Shown: positions 2,673 through 26,595, counted from the first letter of the stretch. The stretch: DNA of 37,272 nucleotides from a virus (IMGVR_UViG_2917403263_000004:1-37272); one strand, 5' to 3'. Numbers and translations: made by a program. Notes: a model not told the origin generated them from the letters alone.

Positions 2673-3244
2673 GTTTTCCCTTCCTCTTTCGCGCTTCCGA
2701 TGCCAACAGCATCCAGACCAGAGCCAACGGCATCATTGATTTTTTTCCAGAATGAACTTTGCGTATTCATGCCTTTGTCTGGCACCTGTTCGCTGCCGTT
2801 CTGTGTTTGCTGTTTTGCAATTGTTTTCTGTGAGCCGCTACGTGCAGATGCTTTCTCTGGTACGCTTAATTTTTCTCTGAGGGTAAAGGTGACCTGCCAG
2901 TGCATCTTGCCCTGTTGTTCCGTGGCATCGATGCCGCCGGAAAAAACACCCTGTCGCATATTAATCGCCTTAGCGGTAGCGTTGGCGATGCGGTATGTTT
3001 TTTTGGCCCCGTTACCTTCAGTTGCTTCGGCAAGCTGAAAAATACGGGTCAGAATGGCCTCATCGTTAAAATCAATGACACCTGACACGCGCAGTTCTTT
3101 TGCCTTGTTTCCCTGCTGAGCGCTTGTGGTGCTGGTTGACTGCCCGGACATGTCTTTATCCGGTAGTTGCATGGTGGCACTGACGGTGATGTTGCGCAGC
3201 AGAATGGCCTCTCCGTCAAGCGCAAGAACAATTATCTGGGTCAT
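2669..3244 (-). CDS. Tail-operon protein of unknown function (possibly gpU-like)
   Basis: 191 aa. Translationally coupled: ATGA overlap with the downstream gene and a 29-nt overlap with the upstream gene. Position between the fibre cassettes and the hub-like gene. No confident motif. Confidence 0.4.
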   Translation of the reverse strand: MTQIIVLALDGEAILLRNITVSATMQLPDKDMSGQSTSTTSAQQGNKAKELRVSGVIDFNDEAILTRIFQLAEATEGNGAKKTYRIANATAKAINMRQGVFSGGIDATEQQGKMHWQVTFTLREKLSVPEKASARSGSQKTIAKQQTQNGSEQVPDKGMNTQSSFWKKINDAVGSGLDAVGIGSAKEEGKT

Positions 3245-3929
3245 GTAGTGCTTCCCTTAGTGATGAGAGTTCATCGCCGACAAACAGCATCACGGCGGTA
3301 AAAACCCACTCCGGGTGTGGAATGTTTTTTTGTATCAGTGCCGCAGTCTGATTAAGTGTTCCCTTGTTGCAAAAACGCCACACCGGACAGAATTGTTGTC
3401 TGAGTGCTGTCTCTCGCCCGGCAATTTCCTGCAAAATTTTATCTCTCGCTTCCCTGAACTGATGAAGTGACGATGACAATGTTTCCGGTGATGTGGCTGC
3501 TGGGGTGGCTGCCTGCGCAATGGTTGCCGCCAGTGTCATGCCACGGGTTGTCTGTGTTGACAGCGTTATCGGCTCCGGAAGTGATGTTGCCGGCCTGGCG
3601 GGGAGTTGCATTCTGCTGATGGCCAGCGAAAGCTGGCTGGAGATCATGCGGGACATTCGCCCCACCTCCGGCAACGGAAATGCACCTGAAAATTGCCTGG
3701 CGAGTGATAAAAATTCGTCAGCGGACGGGGCGCAGAGTAACAGCGCCACAACGTCCTTTTCTGTGCTTTCTGTCAGGTACGGTAAAAGTGCGGATACCGC
3801 ATTGTCCGGACTGAGATAACGCCCGGATGGTGTAATGTTTCCCGTATTTTCTGACCACGGATGAAGGCAGACCACTGAACAGCTGATGTTCATGGCTGCC
3901 GGGCGCAGAATGGCCTTTTCCCATTTCAT
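3216..3929 (-). CDS. Hypothetical tail-operon protein
   Basis: 237 aa. ATG at 3929 overlaps the stop of the upstream tail-fibre assembly gene (ATGA). Low-complexity Ala/Thr/Pro/Ser-rich middle region. No recognisable family. Confidence 0.4.
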   Translation of the reverse strand: MKWEKAILRPAAMNISCSVVCLHPWSENTGNITPSGRYLSPDNAVSALLPYLTESTEKDVVALLLCAPSADEFLSLARQFSGAFPLPEVGRMSRMISSQLSLAISRMQLPARPATSLPEPITLSTQTTRGMTLAATIAQAATPAATSPETLSSSLHQFREARDKILQEIAGRETALRQQFCPVWRFCNKGTLNQTAALIQKNIPHPEWVFTAVMLFVGDELSSLREALHDPDNCSCA

Positions 3930-4498
3930 TCTGCCTTGCCCACCTGAAATGCGCGAATTTCTGCGAGATTATTCAGTTTAGTCAGTGTGTTTTTCATCTC
4001 CCGCTGGCGCAGATAAATCTCATTGTTGCGGGTAACCTGTGCCTGAACCATTGCCGTCAGCAGTTCGTCCAGTTGCTGCACGGAGAGTTTCACCTGGCGG
4101 TTGTTCGCGTCGTTCCATGTCATAACGCTTCGTGCCGTGTCAGATTTTGCCAGCATCACCACCGGAGACAATCTGTCCACTGAAACAGGGCCGGCATCCC
4201 AGATTCGCTTTTTCCATTCGAATGTGAACGACCGCGCTTCCTGTTCTGTGCGCCATGCTTCAATTTCCCGACGCTTGGCTGTTTTTGCTGCTTCCAGTAT
4301 TTCCGGTGTCACAGTGAACGGAGCTATCTCCCCCCATTTACCGCTTTGCAGTTCCTGCCAGATTTTCTGGCCTGTTGGCGCCGTATCATCTGCCGTCGCT
4401 GTATACGGCAGTGCTTCGCCCATTCCCTCGAGCAGTACGTCACAGTCAATTGCACCACTTTCGATATAACGGGCGTTTTCGATTTTTTTTATTTTCAT
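3926..4498 (-). CDS. Tail fibre assembly / chaperone protein (cassette 2)
   Basis: 190 aa immediately downstream of tail fibre 2. Size and position are typical of Tfa/gpG-type fibre chaperones. AGGTGAT RBS. Confidence 0.55.
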   Translation of the reverse strand: MKIKKIENARYIESGAIDCDVLLEGMGEALPYTATADDTAPTGQKIWQELQSGKWGEIAPFTVTPEILEAAKTAKRREIEAWRTEQEARSFTFEWKKRIWDAGPVSVDRLSPVVMLAKSDTARSVMTWNDANNRQVKLSVQQLDELLTAMVQAQVTRNNEIYLRQREMKNTLTKLNNLAEIRAFQVGKAE

Positions 4499-10589: not shown

Positions 10590-10929
10590 GGGATACCGTA
10601 AAAGTCAGGGGTTCAAAAAAATCTTCTGTATGGGCGTTAATCAGCAGGCGACCGGAAAGAGGTGATTCCTCCGTTACACTGACGGTGCCCGGCGTGATGC
10701 GTTCATCATCCTCAATCAACAGTGTCATCTGCATCATGATGTCGGCGCGAAGTGTCTGGCTTTTTTCTGCCAGCAGACGTGTGGCCAGTCCGCTTTCAAT
10801 GATGGCGTGCTGGCAGTCCTGGGCGATACTTTCCCTGTTGTTGCACAGCACTGGTTCGGCGGCGCTGTTCAGCGTGAAGTTGCGACCGGTGATGAGCAAA
10901 TCGATGTAAAGAGGCTGGTCAGTAAGCAT
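10579..10929 (-). CDS. Baseplate wedge protein (gpW / gp25-like)
   Basis: Start taken at internal ATG 10929 (GGAG RBS; 11-nt overlap with the tape measure stop) rather than the track start 11067. About 116 aa, with a C-terminal pattern resembling P2 gpW. Confidence 0.5.
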   Translation of the reverse strand: MLTDQPLYIDLLITGRNFTLNSAAEPVLCNNRESIAQDCQHAIIESGLATRLLAEKSQTLRADIMMQMTLLIEDDERITPGTVSVTEESPLSGRLLINAHTEDFFEPLTFTVSLDD

Positions 10930-13015
10930 GTAGCTCCATCCATTCGTTAAGACGGGCAGGGGATGCGTCCTGCACGTTGACATTGACCACGCGGCGGGAG
11001 TTGTCGATTGTGGTCTGGTTTTCGCTGTTGTTCCGCATCTCTGCCGCAATGCCGCCCGGTCCTGCACTGATGGCTTTTCCGCCGGTTAATACGGAGCCTT
11101 CGCCGCTCCCTGCGCTTTCTGGCGTGTCGATGTTAACGCCGGGGATCATGTTGAGTTTGTCCACAATCCAGCCCCATGAATCACTGAAGGACTGTTTCAC
11201 CAGCTCCCAGAGGTTGCTGAAAATCTTCAGTATGCCGCCGGCGATATTCTTCAGGGCGTCCAGTGGTGAATGCGTGGAAAAATAGTTAACCAGTGCATTC
11301 CAGCCATCCCGGATTGCGCCCCATGCCTTGTCGAAGCATGTCCCCATACTGCCAACCATTCCCGCCACCCACTGAAAGGCGGCGGTGTCCATCAGTGCGG
11401 CCTTGATTTCATCCCAGCGGGTGATCAGGAAATAAATGCCCACACCCAGCGCAGCCAGTGCCAGGATGATTAACGTAATTGGGCTGAAAAGTAGTTGAGT
11501 GGCAACAGCTGCACCGCTGGTAACGGCGGTATAAATTTTCATGGCCACCGCAGTGGCCCCCAGAGCAATGGAGTAAAGCCAGAGTCCGGCACGCTGTAGT
11601 TTCAGCAGCGCCAGCTGAATTTTTGCTTTGATGTTGTATGTTCCCATTACAAGGGTCATGGCCAGATACAGCGCCCTGACCGTTCGGGCGACGGCACAGA
11701 ATGCCCACATGGTGGCAGTCAGCATGCGTTTCAGCAGAATAAGGATTTTCAGAGGCGCAGTAGCTGCCAGCCAGACCAGCCGGAGCCCGGTCCAGACAAA
11801 CTTTGCTGCGCCCACCACAATGTTTGTCACGGCCCCCACGGCAGCAATGCCCAGCAGTGCACCGGTCAACAGGCCAATGGCGCGGGTGATATTGGGGTAC
11901 AGGCGTAACCAGGCAACAAAGGATTTACCGCCTTCGTTGCTTTTCTGGATGAACGGGTACAGAACGGGCAACAGCTGTGTGCCGATTTCAATACGAATGC
12001 CGTTAATAATTGCGGCGGCCTGTTCCCACGGGTCGGCCATGGCCTGCGCCATTTCGACAGCCTTATCCATGCCTTTGATATTGCCCAGCGTGGCGATATT
12101 CTTTTCCAGTCCGCCAATGTCTGCATTGAGCAATTTAATCATGGCCACGGCCTCATCAGAGCCAAATGCGCTTTTCAGCAAATCGGAGTCAGCCACTTTT
12201 GACAGATCACCAAATTTGCCTCTGATAAGTTTCATGATCTCGACAACACTTTTCATCGTGCCGTCTTTATTCACGAAATTAAGCCCCAGCTTTTTCTGGG
12301 CGCTGCCTACAGCGGCCAGAAATGATTTGTACTTTGTCCCGGCCTCACTGCCGCTCATGGTAGCCTGCAACTGCCCCAGCACGGCGAACTGTTCAGCCGC
12401 ATCAATACCGGCTGCTTTTGCACTGGCACCCAGCGTGGTGAACGCTGCCGACATGTTATCGCCGGTTGTTTTAAACATCTGCACGGCGGTGGCGGTTTGT
12501 CCGGCAACCTGCTCAACCCATTTGCTTTTTCCCATGGCATCAGCCTGGTCTTTAAAAATGCCGTACATGGTGCCCATGTAGGCGGTAATTGTCTGGCTGC
12601 TGGATTTGGTTGCCGCAGCCACTGTTGCTGATGCGGTGGTGAAACGGGAGAGTTCATCGTCAGTTAATCCGGCGATGGCTGACTGGATATCATAAGAAGC
12701 ACGTACAAAATCCTGCGCCGCGCCGCCGTATTCCATAGTGAAATCAACGGCGGCCCGACTGAGTTTACGCAACCCGGATTCCGCGACGCCCAGTGACTTC
12801 ACCTCACCGAGCGCCCGGTCCATTTCAATAGCCGGCATCAGTGCGCCTTTCACGGCGGCACCCACGCCCCAGAGTGCAGCGCCACCGGTGGCGATATTGC
12901 GGAAGGCTCCCCGGCTTGTTGCGGCGAATCCCTGAACCTGTCGGCCCGCCGCACGTAACGGTCTTGTCAGGCGGTCTGTCAGTTCAAGAAGTAATTCAAG
13001 ACGCTGCTGTGACAT
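10919..13015 (-). CDS. Tail tape measure protein
   Basis: 698 aa, Ala/Gly-rich with long predicted helices and a central hydrophobic block (LLTGALLGIAAVGAVTNIVVGAAKFVWTGL...). Lies immediately downstream of the frameshifted chaperone pair. Confidence 0.8.
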   Translation of the reverse strand: MSQQRLELLLELTDRLTRPLRAAGRQVQGFAATSRGAFRNIATGGAALWGVGAAVKGALMPAIEMDRALGEVKSLGVAESGLRKLSRAAVDFTMEYGGAAQDFVRASYDIQSAIAGLTDDELSRFTTASATVAAATKSSSQTITAYMGTMYGIFKDQADAMGKSKWVEQVAGQTATAVQMFKTTGDNMSAAFTTLGASAKAAGIDAAEQFAVLGQLQATMSGSEAGTKYKSFLAAVGSAQKKLGLNFVNKDGTMKSVVEIMKLIRGKFGDLSKVADSDLLKSAFGSDEAVAMIKLLNADIGGLEKNIATLGNIKGMDKAVEMAQAMADPWEQAAAIINGIRIEIGTQLLPVLYPFIQKSNEGGKSFVAWLRLYPNITRAIGLLTGALLGIAAVGAVTNIVVGAAKFVWTGLRLVWLAATAPLKILILLKRMLTATMWAFCAVARTVRALYLAMTLVMGTYNIKAKIQLALLKLQRAGLWLYSIALGATAVAMKIYTAVTSGAAVATQLLFSPITLIILALAALGVGIYFLITRWDEIKAALMDTAAFQWVAGMVGSMGTCFDKAWGAIRDGWNALVNYFSTHSPLDALKNIAGGILKIFSNLWELVKQSFSDSWGWIVDKLNMIPGVNIDTPESAGSGEGSVLTGGKAISAGPGGIAAEMRNNSENQTTIDNSRRVVNVNVQDASPARLNEWMELHAY

Positions 13016-13212
13016 TACGATCCTTTAAAAGCGCGAATAATGCCGTTATTGACGGCGATACCCATATTTCCCCAGTAGTGGTTATCCAGCCAGACGGCGG
13101 CAGCCAGTGACTGCGGCGAATCATCTTCGCCGGGCAGCCAGTGGCGGCGCAGGATTAGCATCCGGGTCAGGTCATTGCGATCAATGGCCCCCAGATGGCT
13201 TTTTATTTTTTT
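13015..13212 (-). other. Programmed -1 frameshift extension of the tail chaperone (G-T / E+E'-like fusion product)
   Basis: Slippery run A7 at 13206..13212 at the end of the chaperone ORF. The -1 frame stays open for about 65 codons (KKIKSHLGAIDRNDLTRMLILRRHWLPGEDDSPQSLAAAVWLDNHYWGNMGIAVNNGIIRAFKGS) and stops at TAA overlapping the tape measure ATG (TAATG). Confidence 0.5.
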
Positions 13213-13496
13213 ACGGTGATTTCCACTTCCGGTACGAACTCGTTATTCACGGCCGTTGCCAGGCTTGCCGGCATTCCTGGCTTTTCCAGCAACTGATTCA
13301 GCAGATCGCGGTGGTCTTTAATCACGATGCGGCGCAGGTAGTTTTTCAGTGGCGCGATTTTGTTATCCGGCATGAAGTCGTTCTGCAGGTCGTTGTAGGC
13401 TTTAACTGTCGGGATAAACGTCAGTTCATGCTCGCCCACCTGTAAAGTGATGGTGTTTTCTGCAGTGGTTTGGGTGTTTTTATCGTTCATCATCAT
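13203..13496 (-). CDS. Tail assembly chaperone (G / gpE-like, frame 0 product)
   Basis: 97 aa, acidic, directly upstream of the tape measure gene. Ends in GTA AAA AAA TAA. Confidence 0.6.
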   Translation of the reverse strand: MMMNDKNTQTTAENTITLQVGEHELTFIPTVKAYNDLQNDFMPDNKIAPLKNYLRRIVIKDHRDLLNQLLEKPGMPASLATAVNNEFVPEVEITVKK

Positions 13497-13582
13497 TTCC
13501 TGTTAATGTCAAGAATAAGAGGGCTTAATAAGACCATCAGGAGGCTTATTAAGACTGTCGGTGGCCTTATCCCGTATCGGAA

Positions 13583-13924
13583 TCAGCGCACGCCGTTGTG
13601 CTCAAGGCTGAAATGATTGCCATCCGGGCGGTTTTTAAAACGACCGCCCCATGCACCGCCAAGGGATTCCCAGTACTCGCCCAGTTCGCGGTAGGCCTCT
13701 GTGCGGGTCTGATATTCACCGTTAATAAACAGATTAAAATCCACTGCCAGCCGCTGGCAGTGCAGGCTGTTGGCAGTGCCGGATCCCTTTTGCGCATTGA
13801 GTTTTGCCTGCTCCGGCGTGCGGTACGCTTCACCGAATGTCAGGCCATAACCGCGCTGATGGGCAAACTGGATGAGTTTGCCGACCATGACGGTAAATTG
13901 TTGTTGCTTATCGGAGAGTTTCAT
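13583..13924 (-). CDS. Endolysin, peptidase M15 family (zinc D-Ala-D-Ala carboxypeptidase-like)
   Basis: 113 aa with SLHCQRLAVDFN and DGNHFSLEH, the H..D and H..H metal-binding motifs of M15 peptidases. Follows the holin. Confidence 0.7.
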   Translation of the reverse strand: MKLSDKQQQFTVMVGKLIQFAHQRGYGLTFGEAYRTPEQAKLNAQKGSGTANSLHCQRLAVDFNLFINGEYQTRTEAYRELGEYWESLGGAWGGRFKNRPDGNHFSLEHNGVR

Positions 13925-14025
13925 TTTTGCTCCTTACGGGGTTGCTGAGGTTTGCGCAGCCAGTGCCACAGCACCCGGATAATTTTCCAGGCGGCAGCGG
14001 CTTTTTGTTCCCTGCGGGACAGCAT
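13921..14025 (-). CDS. Small basic ORF (34 aa) between holin and endolysin
   Basis: Manual translation MLSRREQKAAAAWKIIRVLWHWLRKPQQPRKEQK. AGAGGAG lies 8 nt upstream. Its stop overlaps the endolysin ATG (ATGA). Not in the ORF track because of length. Confidence 0.3.
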   Translation of the reverse strand: MLSRREQKAAAAWKIIRVLWHWLRKPQQPRKEQK

Positions 14026-14030
14026 CGCTG

Positions 14031-14327
14031 TTACTCCTCTTTGTTTTCTTTCTCGCCCAGCTTCCGGCGCATATGGCGCAGGAAAATTTCAACAATCTGG
14101 TAGCCGGCTACGCCCATTGCGGTGCCAGCGCCGGCAATAGCCAGCGGGTCAAGATTCGGATAACGAACCAGCAGGGCTGCAGCAGAAACACCCAATGCGC
14201 TACCCAGCAGGGTTCGCCCCACAAACAACCGCAATGTAATCGGCTCCGCGCCAGCCAGCACCCGGCTGGCGGCGGCAATGCCGCCAAGAATGCCCAGGGT
14301 GATGATGGTGCGTTCATGCTCCTGCAT
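14031..14327 (-). CDS. Holin
   Basis: 98 aa with two hydrophobic segments (IITLGILGGIAAASRVLAG, TLLGSALGVSAAALLV) and a charged C-terminus (RHMRRKLGEKENKEE). Immediately upstream of the endolysin. Confidence 0.6.
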   Translation of the reverse strand: MQEHERTIITLGILGGIAAASRVLAGAEPITLRLFVGRTLLGSALGVSAAALLVRYPNLDPLAIAGAGTAMGVAGYQIVEIFLRHMRRKLGEKENKEE

Positions 14328-14330
14328 GGT

Positions 14331-14786
14331 TCACCCCATCAGCCCGCGCACGTCGTTCTCTGAGAGAACGGGCACGCCGTTGATACGCACAAAATCGGGG
14401 CTGGCCACCACGTACTTGATTTTGTGCGTGGTCAGGTCTGCACTCCCGGTGTCAATGCTTAACAACCCGGAGAGCATCAGCTCGCAACCGAAGGCTTCGA
14501 CGCGGATTTCCTCGGTACCGGTGTTGGCGTAGAACACAAAATCCATTGGCGGCAGATCGCGCCATGATCCTGCCTGAGCGGCCACTTCCCCTAGCTGGTT
14601 AAAACTGCGGGTGCTCATTTCAATTTCACCTTCGGCACTGACGGGGCCGCGCAGTTTGCCGTCAGGGATGCCACGGGTTTTGGCAACGGCGCTTTCATCA
14701 CTGATGTCCAGCGAGATGTTATTCACATGGATATCCGTTCCACCGATAAAGGTGTCAAACGCCATGCCGTTAATGCGGGTGGTCAT
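14331..14786 (-). CDS. Putative tail tube protein
   Basis: 151 aa directly downstream of the sheath-like gene (4-nt overlap). Size and position fit a tube protein. No strong motif. Confidence 0.5.
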   Translation of the reverse strand: MTTRINGMAFDTFIGGTDIHVNNISLDISDESAVAKTRGIPDGKLRGPVSAEGEIEMSTRSFNQLGEVAAQAGSWRDLPPMDFVFYANTGTEEIRVEAFGCELMLSGLLSIDTGSADLTTHKIKYVVASPDFVRINGVPVLSENDVRGLMG

Positions 14787-15931
14787 GCACTTTCCTCCAG
14801 AGATTTATCCAGCTGAATGCCCACCTTGATGGTTTTGGGGCAAGCGTAAGGGCGAACAACAATGCTGATACTGACCGTCTTTTCGTCCTGCCAGGTGATG
14901 GCCACATCGCCTTTTTGTGGCGATTTCACTTCGCCCGGAAAGGTGACACCGTTAATCTGCTTGGATTTCGCCATGGTACGCAGCGGGCGGGCAAACAACG
15001 TTTCATGTGCGGCAATGCTGCCCGGTGTGCTGTTCAGTGAACGATCGGCAATTTTGGGGATGGCCATCAGTCGCACGCGGCGCGCCACCTTATCTGCAAT
15101 GCGGACATGCTCAATGACGTTGTAGTCCCCGCCTTCCACCTCAAGTGTCACACCATCAGCCCAGTAAAGGCCGTCATAGTCGGCATACCACATGGGCACG
15201 CTGTAGCGGGCGGTAGCCAGTGCCTGCAGGGTGGCGAGATCAATTGCCTGTCCTGCGCTGTCCTTCGGACGTTCTGTGGTTTTCAGTGCAGACAGAGCCC
15301 CGGTTGCCACGCGTGCGGGACTGTCAGCAATGGTGACGGCGTTGTTACACAGGCGACCGGCAAGAACGCCCGGTTCAAATCCAAAAATCTCCGGAACCAG
15401 CATGACCTGCGGGGCTGCAATACCTTTCTGTAGCGTGGTCAGTTCGGCGACGTATTCCGCCCAGGTTTTACTGCCGTCGTTGGCGGTGATGGTCAGGATG
15501 AACCAGATGCGGCGCTGATATTTATTAATGATGGTCTGACGTAACGCCTGTATGGCGTTGATGTCATCCTTCGTGCTGACCGGTTCAGTGATCACCACGC
15601 CTTCAACTGAAATGGTTTCCTGAGCGGCCAGCACGGCGTTTTGCCATGCCTGGCAGGCCGGCGTTGCTTCTTTGCCTTTGCCTGCGTCCGGCAGAACGGC
15701 GACATAAAAAAAGGCATTCTGTCCAGCATTGGTCAGAGCGGACTGAAGGAAATTTTTCAACGGGCTCGCGTTCGTTCCCAGCAACTCATCCAGATCGCTG
15801 TTGGCGTTAACCGGCAGAACTTTGCCTTTGTTGTTTTGTGCGCTACCCACAAACAACAGTGTATTTTCCACGCCGTCCGGCGAGCTACTGAACGTGTTGT
15901 ACTGTTCAATCGTGACAGATGGCCAGGTCAT
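14783..15931 (-). CDS. Putative tail sheath protein
   Basis: Start taken at internal ATG 15931 (CAGGAG RBS, 8-nt spacer) rather than the track start 16015, giving 382 aa. Followed by the tube-like gene. Confidence 0.5.
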   Translation of the reverse strand: MTWPSVTIEQYNTFSSSPDGVENTLLFVGSAQNNKGKVLPVNANSDLDELLGTNASPLKNFLQSALTNAGQNAFFYVAVLPDAGKGKEATPACQAWQNAVLAAQETISVEGVVITEPVSTKDDINAIQALRQTIINKYQRRIWFILTITANDGSKTWAEYVAELTTLQKGIAAPQVMLVPEIFGFEPGVLAGRLCNNAVTIADSPARVATGALSALKTTERPKDSAGQAIDLATLQALATARYSVPMWYADYDGLYWADGVTLEVEGGDYNVIEHVRIADKVARRVRLMAIPKIADRSLNSTPGSIAAHETLFARPLRTMAKSKQINGVTFPGEVKSPQKGDVAITWQDEKTVSISIVVRPYACPKTIKVGIQLDKSLEESA

Positions 15932-15950
15932 AATTTGTCTCCTGATTTTG

Positions 15951-16664
15951 TTATCTCGTGCCGCCGTAATGCAGGCTACGCAACTGCGCTTCCAGAATGC
16001 GGGTAAATTCAGCATCGCTGGCTCCCAGAAATGCGCGGGAGGGGATTTTTATTTCCCATACACGTTTTTTCTGCTCGCCTTTCAGAATGCTGATCACCAG
16101 TCCGGCCTGCGCCATACTCATGTTTTCCATAATCCATTTCAGGGAGGGCTTTCTGCGTCCCCTGCGTCCGGTTTTTTTGCTGACTGCGCCGACGGGGGCG
16201 CGAAAGCCCAGAGAAAGAAGCCGCTCCGCCTGCCGTCGTGTGGCGGGTCGGGTGCGCATGGTTTCGTTGTTCCGGCGTTTTGTGGCGCGACCTTTGATGG
16301 TTGCACCGTGCTGTTGCACCCACGCGACCGCCCCGCCATGAGAGCCGGTGTTGTAGCCCCCTTTTTTGAAGAAAAGGCGGACACTTTTCCCGTTACTGTC
16401 AACCCTGATGGCCAGCAGTTTTGGCAGTCCCAGCAGCATTTTGTTTTTATACTTACCGCTGGCTTTATCTGGTCTTTTTCGTGGTGCCCAGGCTGCCCCT
16501 TCCGGTGTTCTCTGTGCTTTCACATTGCGTCGTGCAGCTGGCATCAGGCCGTATTTCGCAATACGAACCAGCAGCTTTCTGGCCTTTACCGGCGGAAGTT
16601 CTGCCGCTCTGATGGCGCGATGAACCTGCCGGAGCTGTGATTCATTAATCGCAGGGCGCGTCAT
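15951..16664 (-). CDS. Virion morphogenesis / tail completion protein (gpS-like)
   Basis: 237 aa with an Arg/Lys-rich middle region. Position between gpR-like and sheath genes. Family assignment from general resemblance only. Confidence 0.45.
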   Translation of the reverse strand: MTRPAINESQLRQVHRAIRAAELPPVKARKLLVRIAKYGLMPAARRNVKAQRTPEGAAWAPRKRPDKASGKYKNKMLLGLPKLLAIRVDSNGKSVRLFFKKGGYNTGSHGGAVAWVQQHGATIKGRATKRRNNETMRTRPATRRQAERLLSLGFRAPVGAVSKKTGRRGRRKPSLKWIMENMSMAQAGLVISILKGEQKKRVWEIKIPSRAFLGASDAEFTRILEAQLRSLHYGGTR

Positions 16665-25635: not shown

Positions 25636-26595
25636 TTACTCCTTGTCCATTGCGTACAGCCCATTAACCAGAGCAAACTGTGGCACCCCATCCGCGATGA
25701 AAGTCGCATTAACTCCGCAGGCTTCGCGGATAGCGGGTGCCACAATCTCCGCCCCGCCACCGACAACCATCACCCGCCCGTAACCCGAAAAACCCGCCAG
25801 CGCGCGGATCACGCGTTGTTTCAGTGTTTCCTCCTTTTCACGAATAACCGCCATCAGGCTGCCGTAATGCGCGTCATTGTGGATGTGCTGGCGCAGCCAG
25901 GCTTCATCATGGCGATGTTCGATAATGGTATTGGCGATGTGGTGACTGGTGCGCATACCGTTAGTGGCCATCACCGACAGTACGGCATCGGCCATCAGAG
26001 AAACGCCTACGTGTGGATCGCAAAACACCTGGCTGATACCTGCCAGTTGCCCCTGAACCTTTGCCACATCCAGCGTGGTTCCGCCCAAATCCACAATCAG
26101 CAGGGATTCAAACGGACTCATGTCAGCCAGTGCCTTAAAGCCAGCCGGAATGGATTCAGGCATAACCCGTACGTTACGGATAGTGAATGCTTCGCTGTTC
26201 TGGTACTCCACCGGGCGCATGACGTTCGCTTTTTTGCGGTTGATGTTGGCCATGTCCGGCTGTGCGTTTGTATCGAAATACTCGCTCAGTGGCAGGGTGA
26301 CAACCACATCCACTTCCTGTGGTGGGATGCCTGATTTGACCAGCGCGTGATGAATGGCAATGACATTCACATCACTGTACTGATATTGCGTGTCGGTCGT
26401 CTGGACAAAGCGATCGCTGACCGAATCAAAACCATAGCGCACACCATCAAGCATGTAGTTCGCGGGCTGCGTGCCACCGAACGGCGCAGACCATTCCGAC
26501 TTGAAGCTGTTCGGGCTGATGGCGTTGCGGCGTTCGCCGTTCTCAGTCCATGCCAGCTTGATGTTGGTGGAGCCGTCGTCGATACAAATTTTCAT
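25636..26595 (-). CDS. parM: ParM/StbA-family actin-like plasmid segregation ATPase
   Basis: 319 aa. N-terminus MKICIDDGSTNIKLAW...ISPNSFKSEW...QYSDVNVIAIHHALVKSGIP closely parallels R1 ParM (MLVFIDDGSTNIKLQW...ISPNSFKREW...[20 protein letters not shown], recalled from memory). Confidence 0.85.
   Translation of the reverse strand: MKICIDDGSTNIKLAWTENGERRNAISPNSFKSEWSAPFGGTQPANYMLDGVRYGFDSVSDRFVQTTDTQYQYSDVNVIAIHHALVKSGIPPQEVDVVVTLPLSEYFDTNAQPDMANINRKKANVMRPVEYQNSEAFTIRNVRVMPESIPAGFKALADMSPFESLLIVDLGGTTLDVAKVQGQLAGISQVFCDPHVGVSLMADAVLSVMATNGMRTSHHIANTIIEHRHDEAWLRQHIHNDAHYGSLMAVIREKEETLKQRVIRALAGFSGYGRVMVVGGGAEIVAPAIREACGVNATFIADGVPQFALVNGLYAMDKE

Follow-up and report, generated by a model that had tools for sequence, protein, structure and literature searches.

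Phages of the HP1 type carry their lysis genes inside the tail gene block. In the annotation of the Haemophilus phage HP1 the gene order is orf24 (tail tube), hol, lys, an Rz-like gene, orf26, and orf27, and in Yersinia phage vB_YenM_324 (Peduoviridae), the closest deposited phage to the DNA analysed here, it is tube, holin, endolysin, Rz, Rz1, and tail chaperone. In both phages Rz/Rz1 follows the endolysin and no open reading frame (ORF) lies between holin and endolysin. The survey by Kongari et al. (2018; PMC6139136) found spanins in all of its HP1-like phages, and the retrieved part of its spanin-less table lists no P2- or HP1-like phage; about 13–15% of phages of Gram-negative hosts are classed as spanin-less, and how these breach the outer membrane is posed as an open question there and again in a 2026 paper (PMC12819732). 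The disruptin gp28 of phage phiKT complements lambda Rz/Rz1 mutants and acts like the peptide LL-37 (bioRxiv 10.1101/515445). In the searchable literature, gp28 is the only phage protein described as a disruptin. Here we analyse a 37,272-nucleotide (nt) viral stretch (IMGVR_UViG_2917403263_000004:1-37272), hereafter the window, in which the arrangement of HP1 and vB_YenM_324 is reversed: an ORF of 34 amino acids (aa), MLSRREQKAAAAWKIIRVLWHWLRKPQQPRKEQK, separates holin from endolysin, and an 86-nt hairpin-containing spacer takes the place of Rz/Rz1.

All genes in the cassette region lie on the minus strand, to which the coordinates of the region refer. The 98-aa holin (14031–14327) matches PF04550 Phage_holin_3_2 (E 5.5e-28; 97.7 bits against a gathering threshold of 25) and the holin family phrog_175 (E 1.2e-32), and its hydropathy profile reveals three hydrophobic Gly/Ala-rich segments and a charged C-terminus. 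Within its last codons is a Shine-Dalgarno sequence, GAGGAG (14034–14039), located 8 nt upstream of the ATG of the small ORF (13921–14025), whose product has a net charge of +8, contains three tryptophans, and belongs to no family. The last codons of the small ORF in turn contain the Shine-Dalgarno sequence of the endolysin, AAGGAG (13930–13935), and its stop overlaps the endolysin start in the sequence ATGA. The endolysin (13583–13924) is a 113-aa M15 zinc peptidase (PF13539 Peptidase_M15_4, E 8.5e-12, 45.9 bits against a gathering threshold of 25; phrog_1768 and phrog_465) in which H55-x6-D62 and H104/H109 can be read from the sequence, and it is 68–98% identical to the enzymes of its relatives. 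Its 113 residues include no signal or signal-arrest-release (SAR) sequence, and a sequence search of the PDB with the endolysin returned nothing at 1e-3. Scans for promoters and terminators gave nothing convincing within the cassette. Upstream lies the 151-aa tail tube gene (14331–14786; PF10772 Phage_HP1_Orf24, E 2.1e-50) in the position of HP1 orf24; downstream, beyond the 86-nt spacer (13497–13582) that fills the site occupied by Rz/Rz1 in relatives, lies the 97-aa tail assembly chaperone gene (13203–13496; PF10963 Phage_TAC_10, E 2e-26). A sequence-only reading of the window had described this cassette of holin, small ORF, and M15 endolysin between tail tube and tail chaperone, together with the strong ribosome-binding site (RBS) and ATGA coupling of the small ORF, and the coordinates, Pfam matches, and motifs agree with that description. 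The same reading singled out the location inside the tail block as a departure from P2. The location was correctly placed, but it is not noteworthy: HP1 and vB_YenM_324 share the site, and a cassette between an Orf24-family tube gene and the chaperone and tape measure genes is the standard late operon layout of HP1-type Peduoviridae.

The lineage of the window has lost Rz/Rz1. The window contains neither an outer-membrane spanin (o-spanin) lipobox nor an inner-membrane spanin (i-spanin) with a transmembrane domain (TMD) and coiled coil. A strict lipobox scan of its six frames gave one match only, which is antisense, and a relaxed scan gave only out-of-frame or antisense matches, none of them near the cassette and none with an i-spanin partner. 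The relaxed scan recovered 77 of the 78 o-spanins in a set of spanin-bearing relatives (class A, below), and BamD and an SPFH lipoprotein were detected in an E. coli locus used as a control, which indicates that the lipobox scans work. The earlier statement that no spanin-like genes are recognisable is therefore borne out. Lipobox scans likewise found no spanin in a full 41.8-kb E. coli prophage relative or in a 20-kb contig of the class C lineage described below, and the PGAP annotation of the E. coli prophage contains none. Three candidates were rejected. A 53-aa ORF with a TTG start (13934–14095), overlapping the holin end and the small ORF, is absent from three of the sequence types described below (L029, L032, and L033), and its 'FSCAIC' is not part of a signal peptide with a lipobox. 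A 31-aa alternative-frame ORF inside the endolysin gene (13567–13662; 'LSTTAC') has just six residues after the cysteine, and a lipobox-like ORF at 26219–26350 on the plus strand lies far from the cassette, opposite an ORF (25636–26595) in the position of the ParM gene of the E. coli prophage. The SPFH-domain lipoprotein of the E. coli relative (L003, 36565–37395; lipobox LLVGC) is encoded in the early region and has no equivalent in the lipobox scan of the window.

About 200 related loci were gathered from GTDB genomes, contigs encoding holin homologues, IMG/VR, and metagenomes, and the holin-endolysin and endolysin-chaperone gaps were measured at each. Four architectures were found. In class A (78 + 44 loci with some overlap, more than 100 loci; hosts include Yersinia, Xenorhabdus, Photorhabdus, Ewingella, Serratia, and others), the stop of the holin gene and the start of the endolysin gene overlap and about 440–470 nt separate the endolysin from the chaperone; this interval encodes two overlapping spanins, an i-spanin whose TMD is N-terminal and an o-spanin whose lipobox reads LSGC or TSGC, and there is no small ORF. 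Class A tubes are 44–55% identical to that of the window, and the holins of the spanin-bearing relatives are 42–61% identical to the window holin. Class B comprises the window and about 40 loci with tubes at least 83% identical; it has a holin-endolysin gap of 88–118 nt containing the small ORF, 60–86 nt between endolysin and chaperone, and no spanins. In class C (L034/L124 and L037–39) the holin overlaps the endolysin and 65–86 nt precede the chaperone, and in class D, an intermediate lineage (L148, L150 at 2998–4174, and L152; tubes 66–68% identical to the window), the holin is followed by a GH108 + PG_binding_3 enzyme in place of the M15 endolysin and then by the chaperone; both classes are without spanins and without the small ORF. 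A hidden Markov model of the peptide matches every class B locus (E 1e-13 to 1e-19) and zero class A, C, or D loci, and among the collected loci the small ORF and Rz/Rz1 never co-occur. In neighbour-joining trees of the tube, endolysin, and holin, singly and concatenated, class C falls within class B, and the basal class B types are the most divergent ones, L029 and L032/L060. This nesting indicates that the small ORF was present in the ancestor of classes B and C and was secondarily lost in class C, where it is precisely missing and the holin stop again overlaps the endolysin start. No compensating change, such as a more cationic terminus, was seen in the class C endolysin or holin.

The small ORF is open in about 40 related loci, which represent at least five diverged sequence types of 31–41 aa. 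The window type (34–35 aa) begins MLSRREQKAAAIAWKIIRALW[YRH]WLRK... and in full reads MLSRREQKAAA(I)AWKIIRALW[YRH]WLRKPQQP[RH]KEQK, with an optional isoleucine within the alanine-rich stretch and Arg or His before a terminal KEQK. Other types are MKLTDRQQKRAAIAWKILRTLWRWLCKPQKTSKDK... (L035/L036, 36–39 aa), MTPSEKQKLTAIIWRVICAAWRHLSKRRGKK (L033, 31 aa), MNTTDRQWRVIATLWRYGQALWRLWKKLRNSNRRE (L029, 35 aa), and MTGKKASPGILSGMRQFAVKVWQLLRSLQKLRNSMNGKTRP (L032, 41 aa); type-defining stretches include MKLTDRQQKRAAIAWKILRTLWRWLCK..., MTPSEKQKLTAIIWRVICAAWRHLSK..., MNTTDRQWRVIATLWRYGQALWRLWKK..., and MTGKK...FAVKVWQLLRSLQKLRNS.... The similarity between types exceeds that of composition-preserving shuffles: the L035-L029 and L035-L033 pairs each gave 0/2000 and the pair of the window type and L033 gave 6/2000, with weaker values for L032 (5–55/2000). 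Residues A11, W13, W20, and K25 are invariant in the alignment of types. All types have a Shine-Dalgarno-like motif 5–9 nt upstream of a start that either overlaps the holin stop (ATGA or GTGA) or follows it by a few bases, and in all of them the stop overlaps or abuts the endolysin start. Pairwise ratios of nonsynonymous to synonymous polymorphism (pN/pS) within the close group are mostly 0.1–0.4, about 0.2, and the replacements are conservative (R/K/H, I/V, and A/V/T). An ORF that is unconserved in relatives, or interrupted there, was the outcome that the sequence-only reading regarded as fatal to its proposal; the frame is conserved and uninterrupted save for one allele, L049, which stops after codon 26 and keeps the helix described below. 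Three other alleles (L044/45/47) stop two codons early. By these alleles, the constrained part of the product is the helix and not the tail.

That so short a frame is merely a chance opening in an intergenic spacer is very unlikely, even though PGAP leaves it unannotated in RefSeq E. coli genomes and its variable sites are little skewed to third codon positions (9, 8, and 10 sites at the three positions). By estimate, a given frame of about 35 codons has a chance of about 0.19 of remaining open in each independent lineage, which is difficult to reconcile with the number of loci and types in which this one is intact. Indels in the window-type subfamily preserve the reading frame (−3 nt for the window, −9 nt for L230), there are more synonymous changes than chance would give (12 of the 27 variable sites in a close-group alignment read by eye, against about 21% expected), the RBS and coupling are conserved, and some gene callers do predict the ORF, at 35, 39, and 41 aa in certain contigs. 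The small ORF matched no Pfam or PHROG family. Among 1.84 billion representatives searched exhaustively with phmmer, true relatives numbered just two (P0024 and P0026) and the remaining two matches were repeat proteins; the IMG/VR contigs that matched a pattern built from the peptide alignment all belonged to the same clade, which indicates that the peptide family is confined to one clade. Taken together, we conclude from these patterns of conservation that the small ORF is a genuine gene, the third of the lysis cassette, and is translationally coupled.

The predicted product is a compact cationic helix. AlphaFold2 run without an alignment gives one helix spanning residues 4–23 with a predicted local distance difference test (pLDDT) score of 73, and the low hydropathy maximum of the 34-aa peptide (KD17, the Kyte-Doolittle value over 17 residues, 0.37) rules out a transmembrane segment. 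Members of the family are 31–41 aa long, amphipathic, and Trp/Arg-rich, with net charges of +7 to +11 and 1–4 tryptophans. Their maximum 18-mer hydrophobic moments are 0.58–0.78, with 0.63 for the window peptide (residues 11–28); by the same measure phiKT gp28 reaches 0.68 at a charge of +7 and LL-37 reaches 0.89 at +6. The window peptide resembles cationic antimicrobial and cell-penetrating peptides (LL-37, tritrpticin, lactoferricin, and penetratin) in length (30–40 aa), net charge (+6 to +9), amphipathic helicity, and a Trp/Arg-rich composition of the kind that is associated with binding to lipopolysaccharide (LPS) and anionic lipids; it has no sequence similarity to LL-37. A difference from antimicrobial peptides in general is that the window peptide would be made inside the cell on which it acts.

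The working description of disruptin candidates given by Holt et al. is a helical product of fewer than 80 aa and a net charge of at least +4, encoded near lysis genes in a spanin-less genome (bioRxiv 10.1101/515445). The window peptide has 34 aa and a charge of +8; it is predicted to form an amphipathic α-helix with no TMD, signal peptide, or lipobox; its gene lies between those of the holin and endolysin and is coupled to both; and six-frame lipobox scans class the genome as spanin-less. Much of this is shared with phiKT, whose gp28 (NC_019520 gene 28) is also a small cationic peptide with a predicted amphipathic helix and neither TMD nor signal sequence, encoded between endolysin (gene 27) and holin (gene 29) in a genome without a lipoprotein gene, and with a net charge, +7, close to that of the window peptide. 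The phiKT holin gp29 (L123 7283–7666; PF04550) is homologous to the window holin (28% identity over 86 residues, E 1e-11), so that both the known and the suspected peptide-type cassette use holins of the PF04550 family. The two systems differ in other respects. The window peptide is a single Trp/Arg-rich helix of 34 aa, whereas gp28 has 56 aa; the gene order is holin-peptide-endolysin in the window and endolysin-peptide-holin in phiKT; and the endolysin is an M15 peptidase in the former and a T4-type lysozyme in the latter. PhiKT is a virulent podovirus, whereas the window represents a temperate P2/HP1-type myovirus prophage. Phage vB_YenM_324 encodes a holin of the family found in the window, at 60% identity, and shares its M15 endolysin at 74% identity.

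These likenesses suggest, tentatively, that the 34-aa peptide is a disruptin-like outer-membrane disruptor standing in for the lost Rz/Rz1. The peptide would be synthesised late, in step with the holin and endolysin, would bind anionic membranes, and might reach the periplasm either unaided or through the holin lesion. There it would bind LPS and weaken the outer membrane, and the cell would burst once the M15 endolysin had removed the peptidoglycan. At a similar level of confidence, the small ORF may have founded a second, unrelated disruptin family, which took over when a temperate HP1/P2-type coliphage lineage lost Rz/Rz1.

Several observations weigh against such a function. The peptide has no detectable homology to gp28 (phrog_35982): BLASTP produced no alignment, there was no PHROG match, and Smith-Waterman scores were no better than those of shuffled sequences, so that the relationship is one of analogy and not of membership in the gp28 sequence family. 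About 4% of random ORFs of 28–45 aa in the GC-rich window are equally cationic and amphipathic; the combination is informative only in that diverged subfamilies all retain it. Spanins and peptide are both missing from classes C and D, and thus the peptide can be dispensed with, and the loss of spanins was not necessarily made good by it. Loss of the spanins and gain of the peptide map to one lineage, and they therefore constitute a single event and not a replicated correlation. Finally, the phage collection holds no cultured phage of the small-ORF clade, the members seen being prophages or metagenomic contigs.

The location of the ORF directly behind the holin gene, to which it is coupled, is also what might be expected of an antiholin or lysis-timing regulator that works from the cytoplasmic side of the inner membrane, or through the charged C-terminus of the holin, to delay or sharpen holin triggering, with no part in outer-membrane disruption. 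The single Met start of the holin leaves no room for a dual-start antiholin isoform, and the phiKT authors pointed out that cationic peptides can affect the proton-motive force and hence holin timing (bioRxiv 10.1101/515445). The persistence of class C after loss of the ORF, and of class D in its absence, is the behaviour expected of a modulator and not of an essential effector. Known antiholins, among them lambda S107, T4 RI and RIII, P2 LysA, and P1 LydB, are likewise small accessory products encoded beside the holin in lysis cassettes; they are holin isoforms, membrane or SAR proteins, or, in the case of RIII (82 aa), a larger cytoplasmic protein. The window peptide, unlike these, has no TMD or SAR domain and no homology to RI, RIII, LydB, or LysA in Pfam or PHROG comparisons, and it is restricted to a spanin-less lineage. 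More than 100 spanin-bearing relatives with homologous holins manage without it, and the C-terminal tail of the holin displays no obvious co-variation with peptide type. Trp/Arg-rich amphipathic helices with a charge of +8 are, moreover, typical of membrane-active peptides and not of specific protein ligands. An antiholin or regulator, as the sequence-only reading had proposed, thus receives no specific support and appears rather unlikely; the absence of a TMD and of any catalogued family, the confinement to the lineage without Rz/Rz1, and the disruptin-like size, charge, helicity, and position make an outer-membrane role at least as likely as regulation.

A further reading is that the small ORF is translated but its peptide either has no function of its own, the ORF serving as a coupling leader that sets endolysin translation, or has one unrelated to envelope disruption, such as that of a prophage-encoded toxin or moron peptide. 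The endolysin RBS lies within the last codons of the ORF and the two genes overlap, the C-terminal tail is variable and tolerates the truncations noted above, and class C demonstrates that the holin stop can be coupled directly to the endolysin start. At least five diverged subfamilies, on the other hand, share a cationic amphipathic helix containing Trp at a pN/pS of about 0.2, which would not be expected of a mere spacer, and the constraint falls on the helix (A11, W13, W20, and K25) and not on the tail that bears the RBS. We therefore regard a leader or an unrelated peptide as improbable. A fusion of the small ORF to the endolysin by a −1 slip on the A-run CAA-AAA-TGA, which would provide the endolysin with a cationic, membrane-permeabilising N-terminal tag, is less probable still, to the point of being hardly credible. 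The endolysin is read in the −1 frame with respect to the small ORF, the window type has a run of five A residues before the stop, and the run length differs between L035 and L036, where five or six A residues precede the endolysin ATG and the stop is shifted 13 nt into the endolysin gene. This terminal A-run is thus mutable; it is missing in the L029 and L032 subfamilies (GGGAGTGATG and CCAGACCATGA), is more simply explained as the A-rich spacer of a strong RBS, and is accompanied by no visible stimulatory structure. Frameshift fusions of either kind, holin-peptide or peptide-endolysin, were rejected on the basis of the frame relations and the lack of conservation of the A-run between subfamilies. 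The disruptin-like function outlined above remains our preferred, if tentative, reading of the peptide.

The spacer that replaces Rz/Rz1 contains a conserved 13-bp stem-loop (about 13522–13555), CUUAAUAAGCC-loop-GGUCUUAUUAAG, which is followed by a U-rich stretch and the chaperone RBS. Its arms covary, with compensatory changes at four pairs among 10 diverged sequences. The window copy folds weakly (−23.5 kcal/mol, z −1.27), and the terminator scan did not call the stem-loop. Its possible roles are those of a partial terminator, an RNA-stability element, or a palindromic binding site.

Farther out in the tail block, the tape measure gene (10919–13015; PhageMin_Tail) lies downstream of the chaperone. 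The interval between chaperone and tape measure contains a 48-aa ORF (13015–13161, minus strand) whose position and length match the gene annotated as DUF6890 in relatives and which may encode the frameshift extension of the tail chaperone, as in P2 E/E'. Upstream of the tube, the sheath gene (14783–16015; DUF2586) is mechanically called at 410 aa, and its homologues are called at 382–384 aa; translation probably begins at the internal Met of MTWPSVTIEQ..., about 28 codons farther into the ORF.

As a whole, the window is a prophage with a P2-type head and an HP1-type tail. Of 5426 complete E. coli genomes, 41 carry a version about 92% identical between raiA and pheL/pheA, and E. albertii has a further version. 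In E. coli STEC313 (NZ_CP041433; L002/L003) the holin-endolysin gap is 109 nt and contains a 35-aa ORF that RefSeq/PGAP leaves unannotated.

The position of the cassette was already known; the peptide family is new and is absent from RefSeq annotation, Pfam, and PHROGs. The locus provides a short, easily synthesised disruptin candidate in E. coli prophages, in an unusually clean comparative setting in which relatives carry Rz/Rz1 only, the peptide only, or neither. If the peptide does disrupt the outer membrane, it would be the first disruptin in a temperate myovirus or prophage. It would mean that disruptins arise independently, would supply sequence rules for finding them, and would add a natural Trp/Arg-rich peptide active against Gram-negative cells. 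If it is instead a regulator of lysis timing, it would represent a new type of soluble holin modulator.

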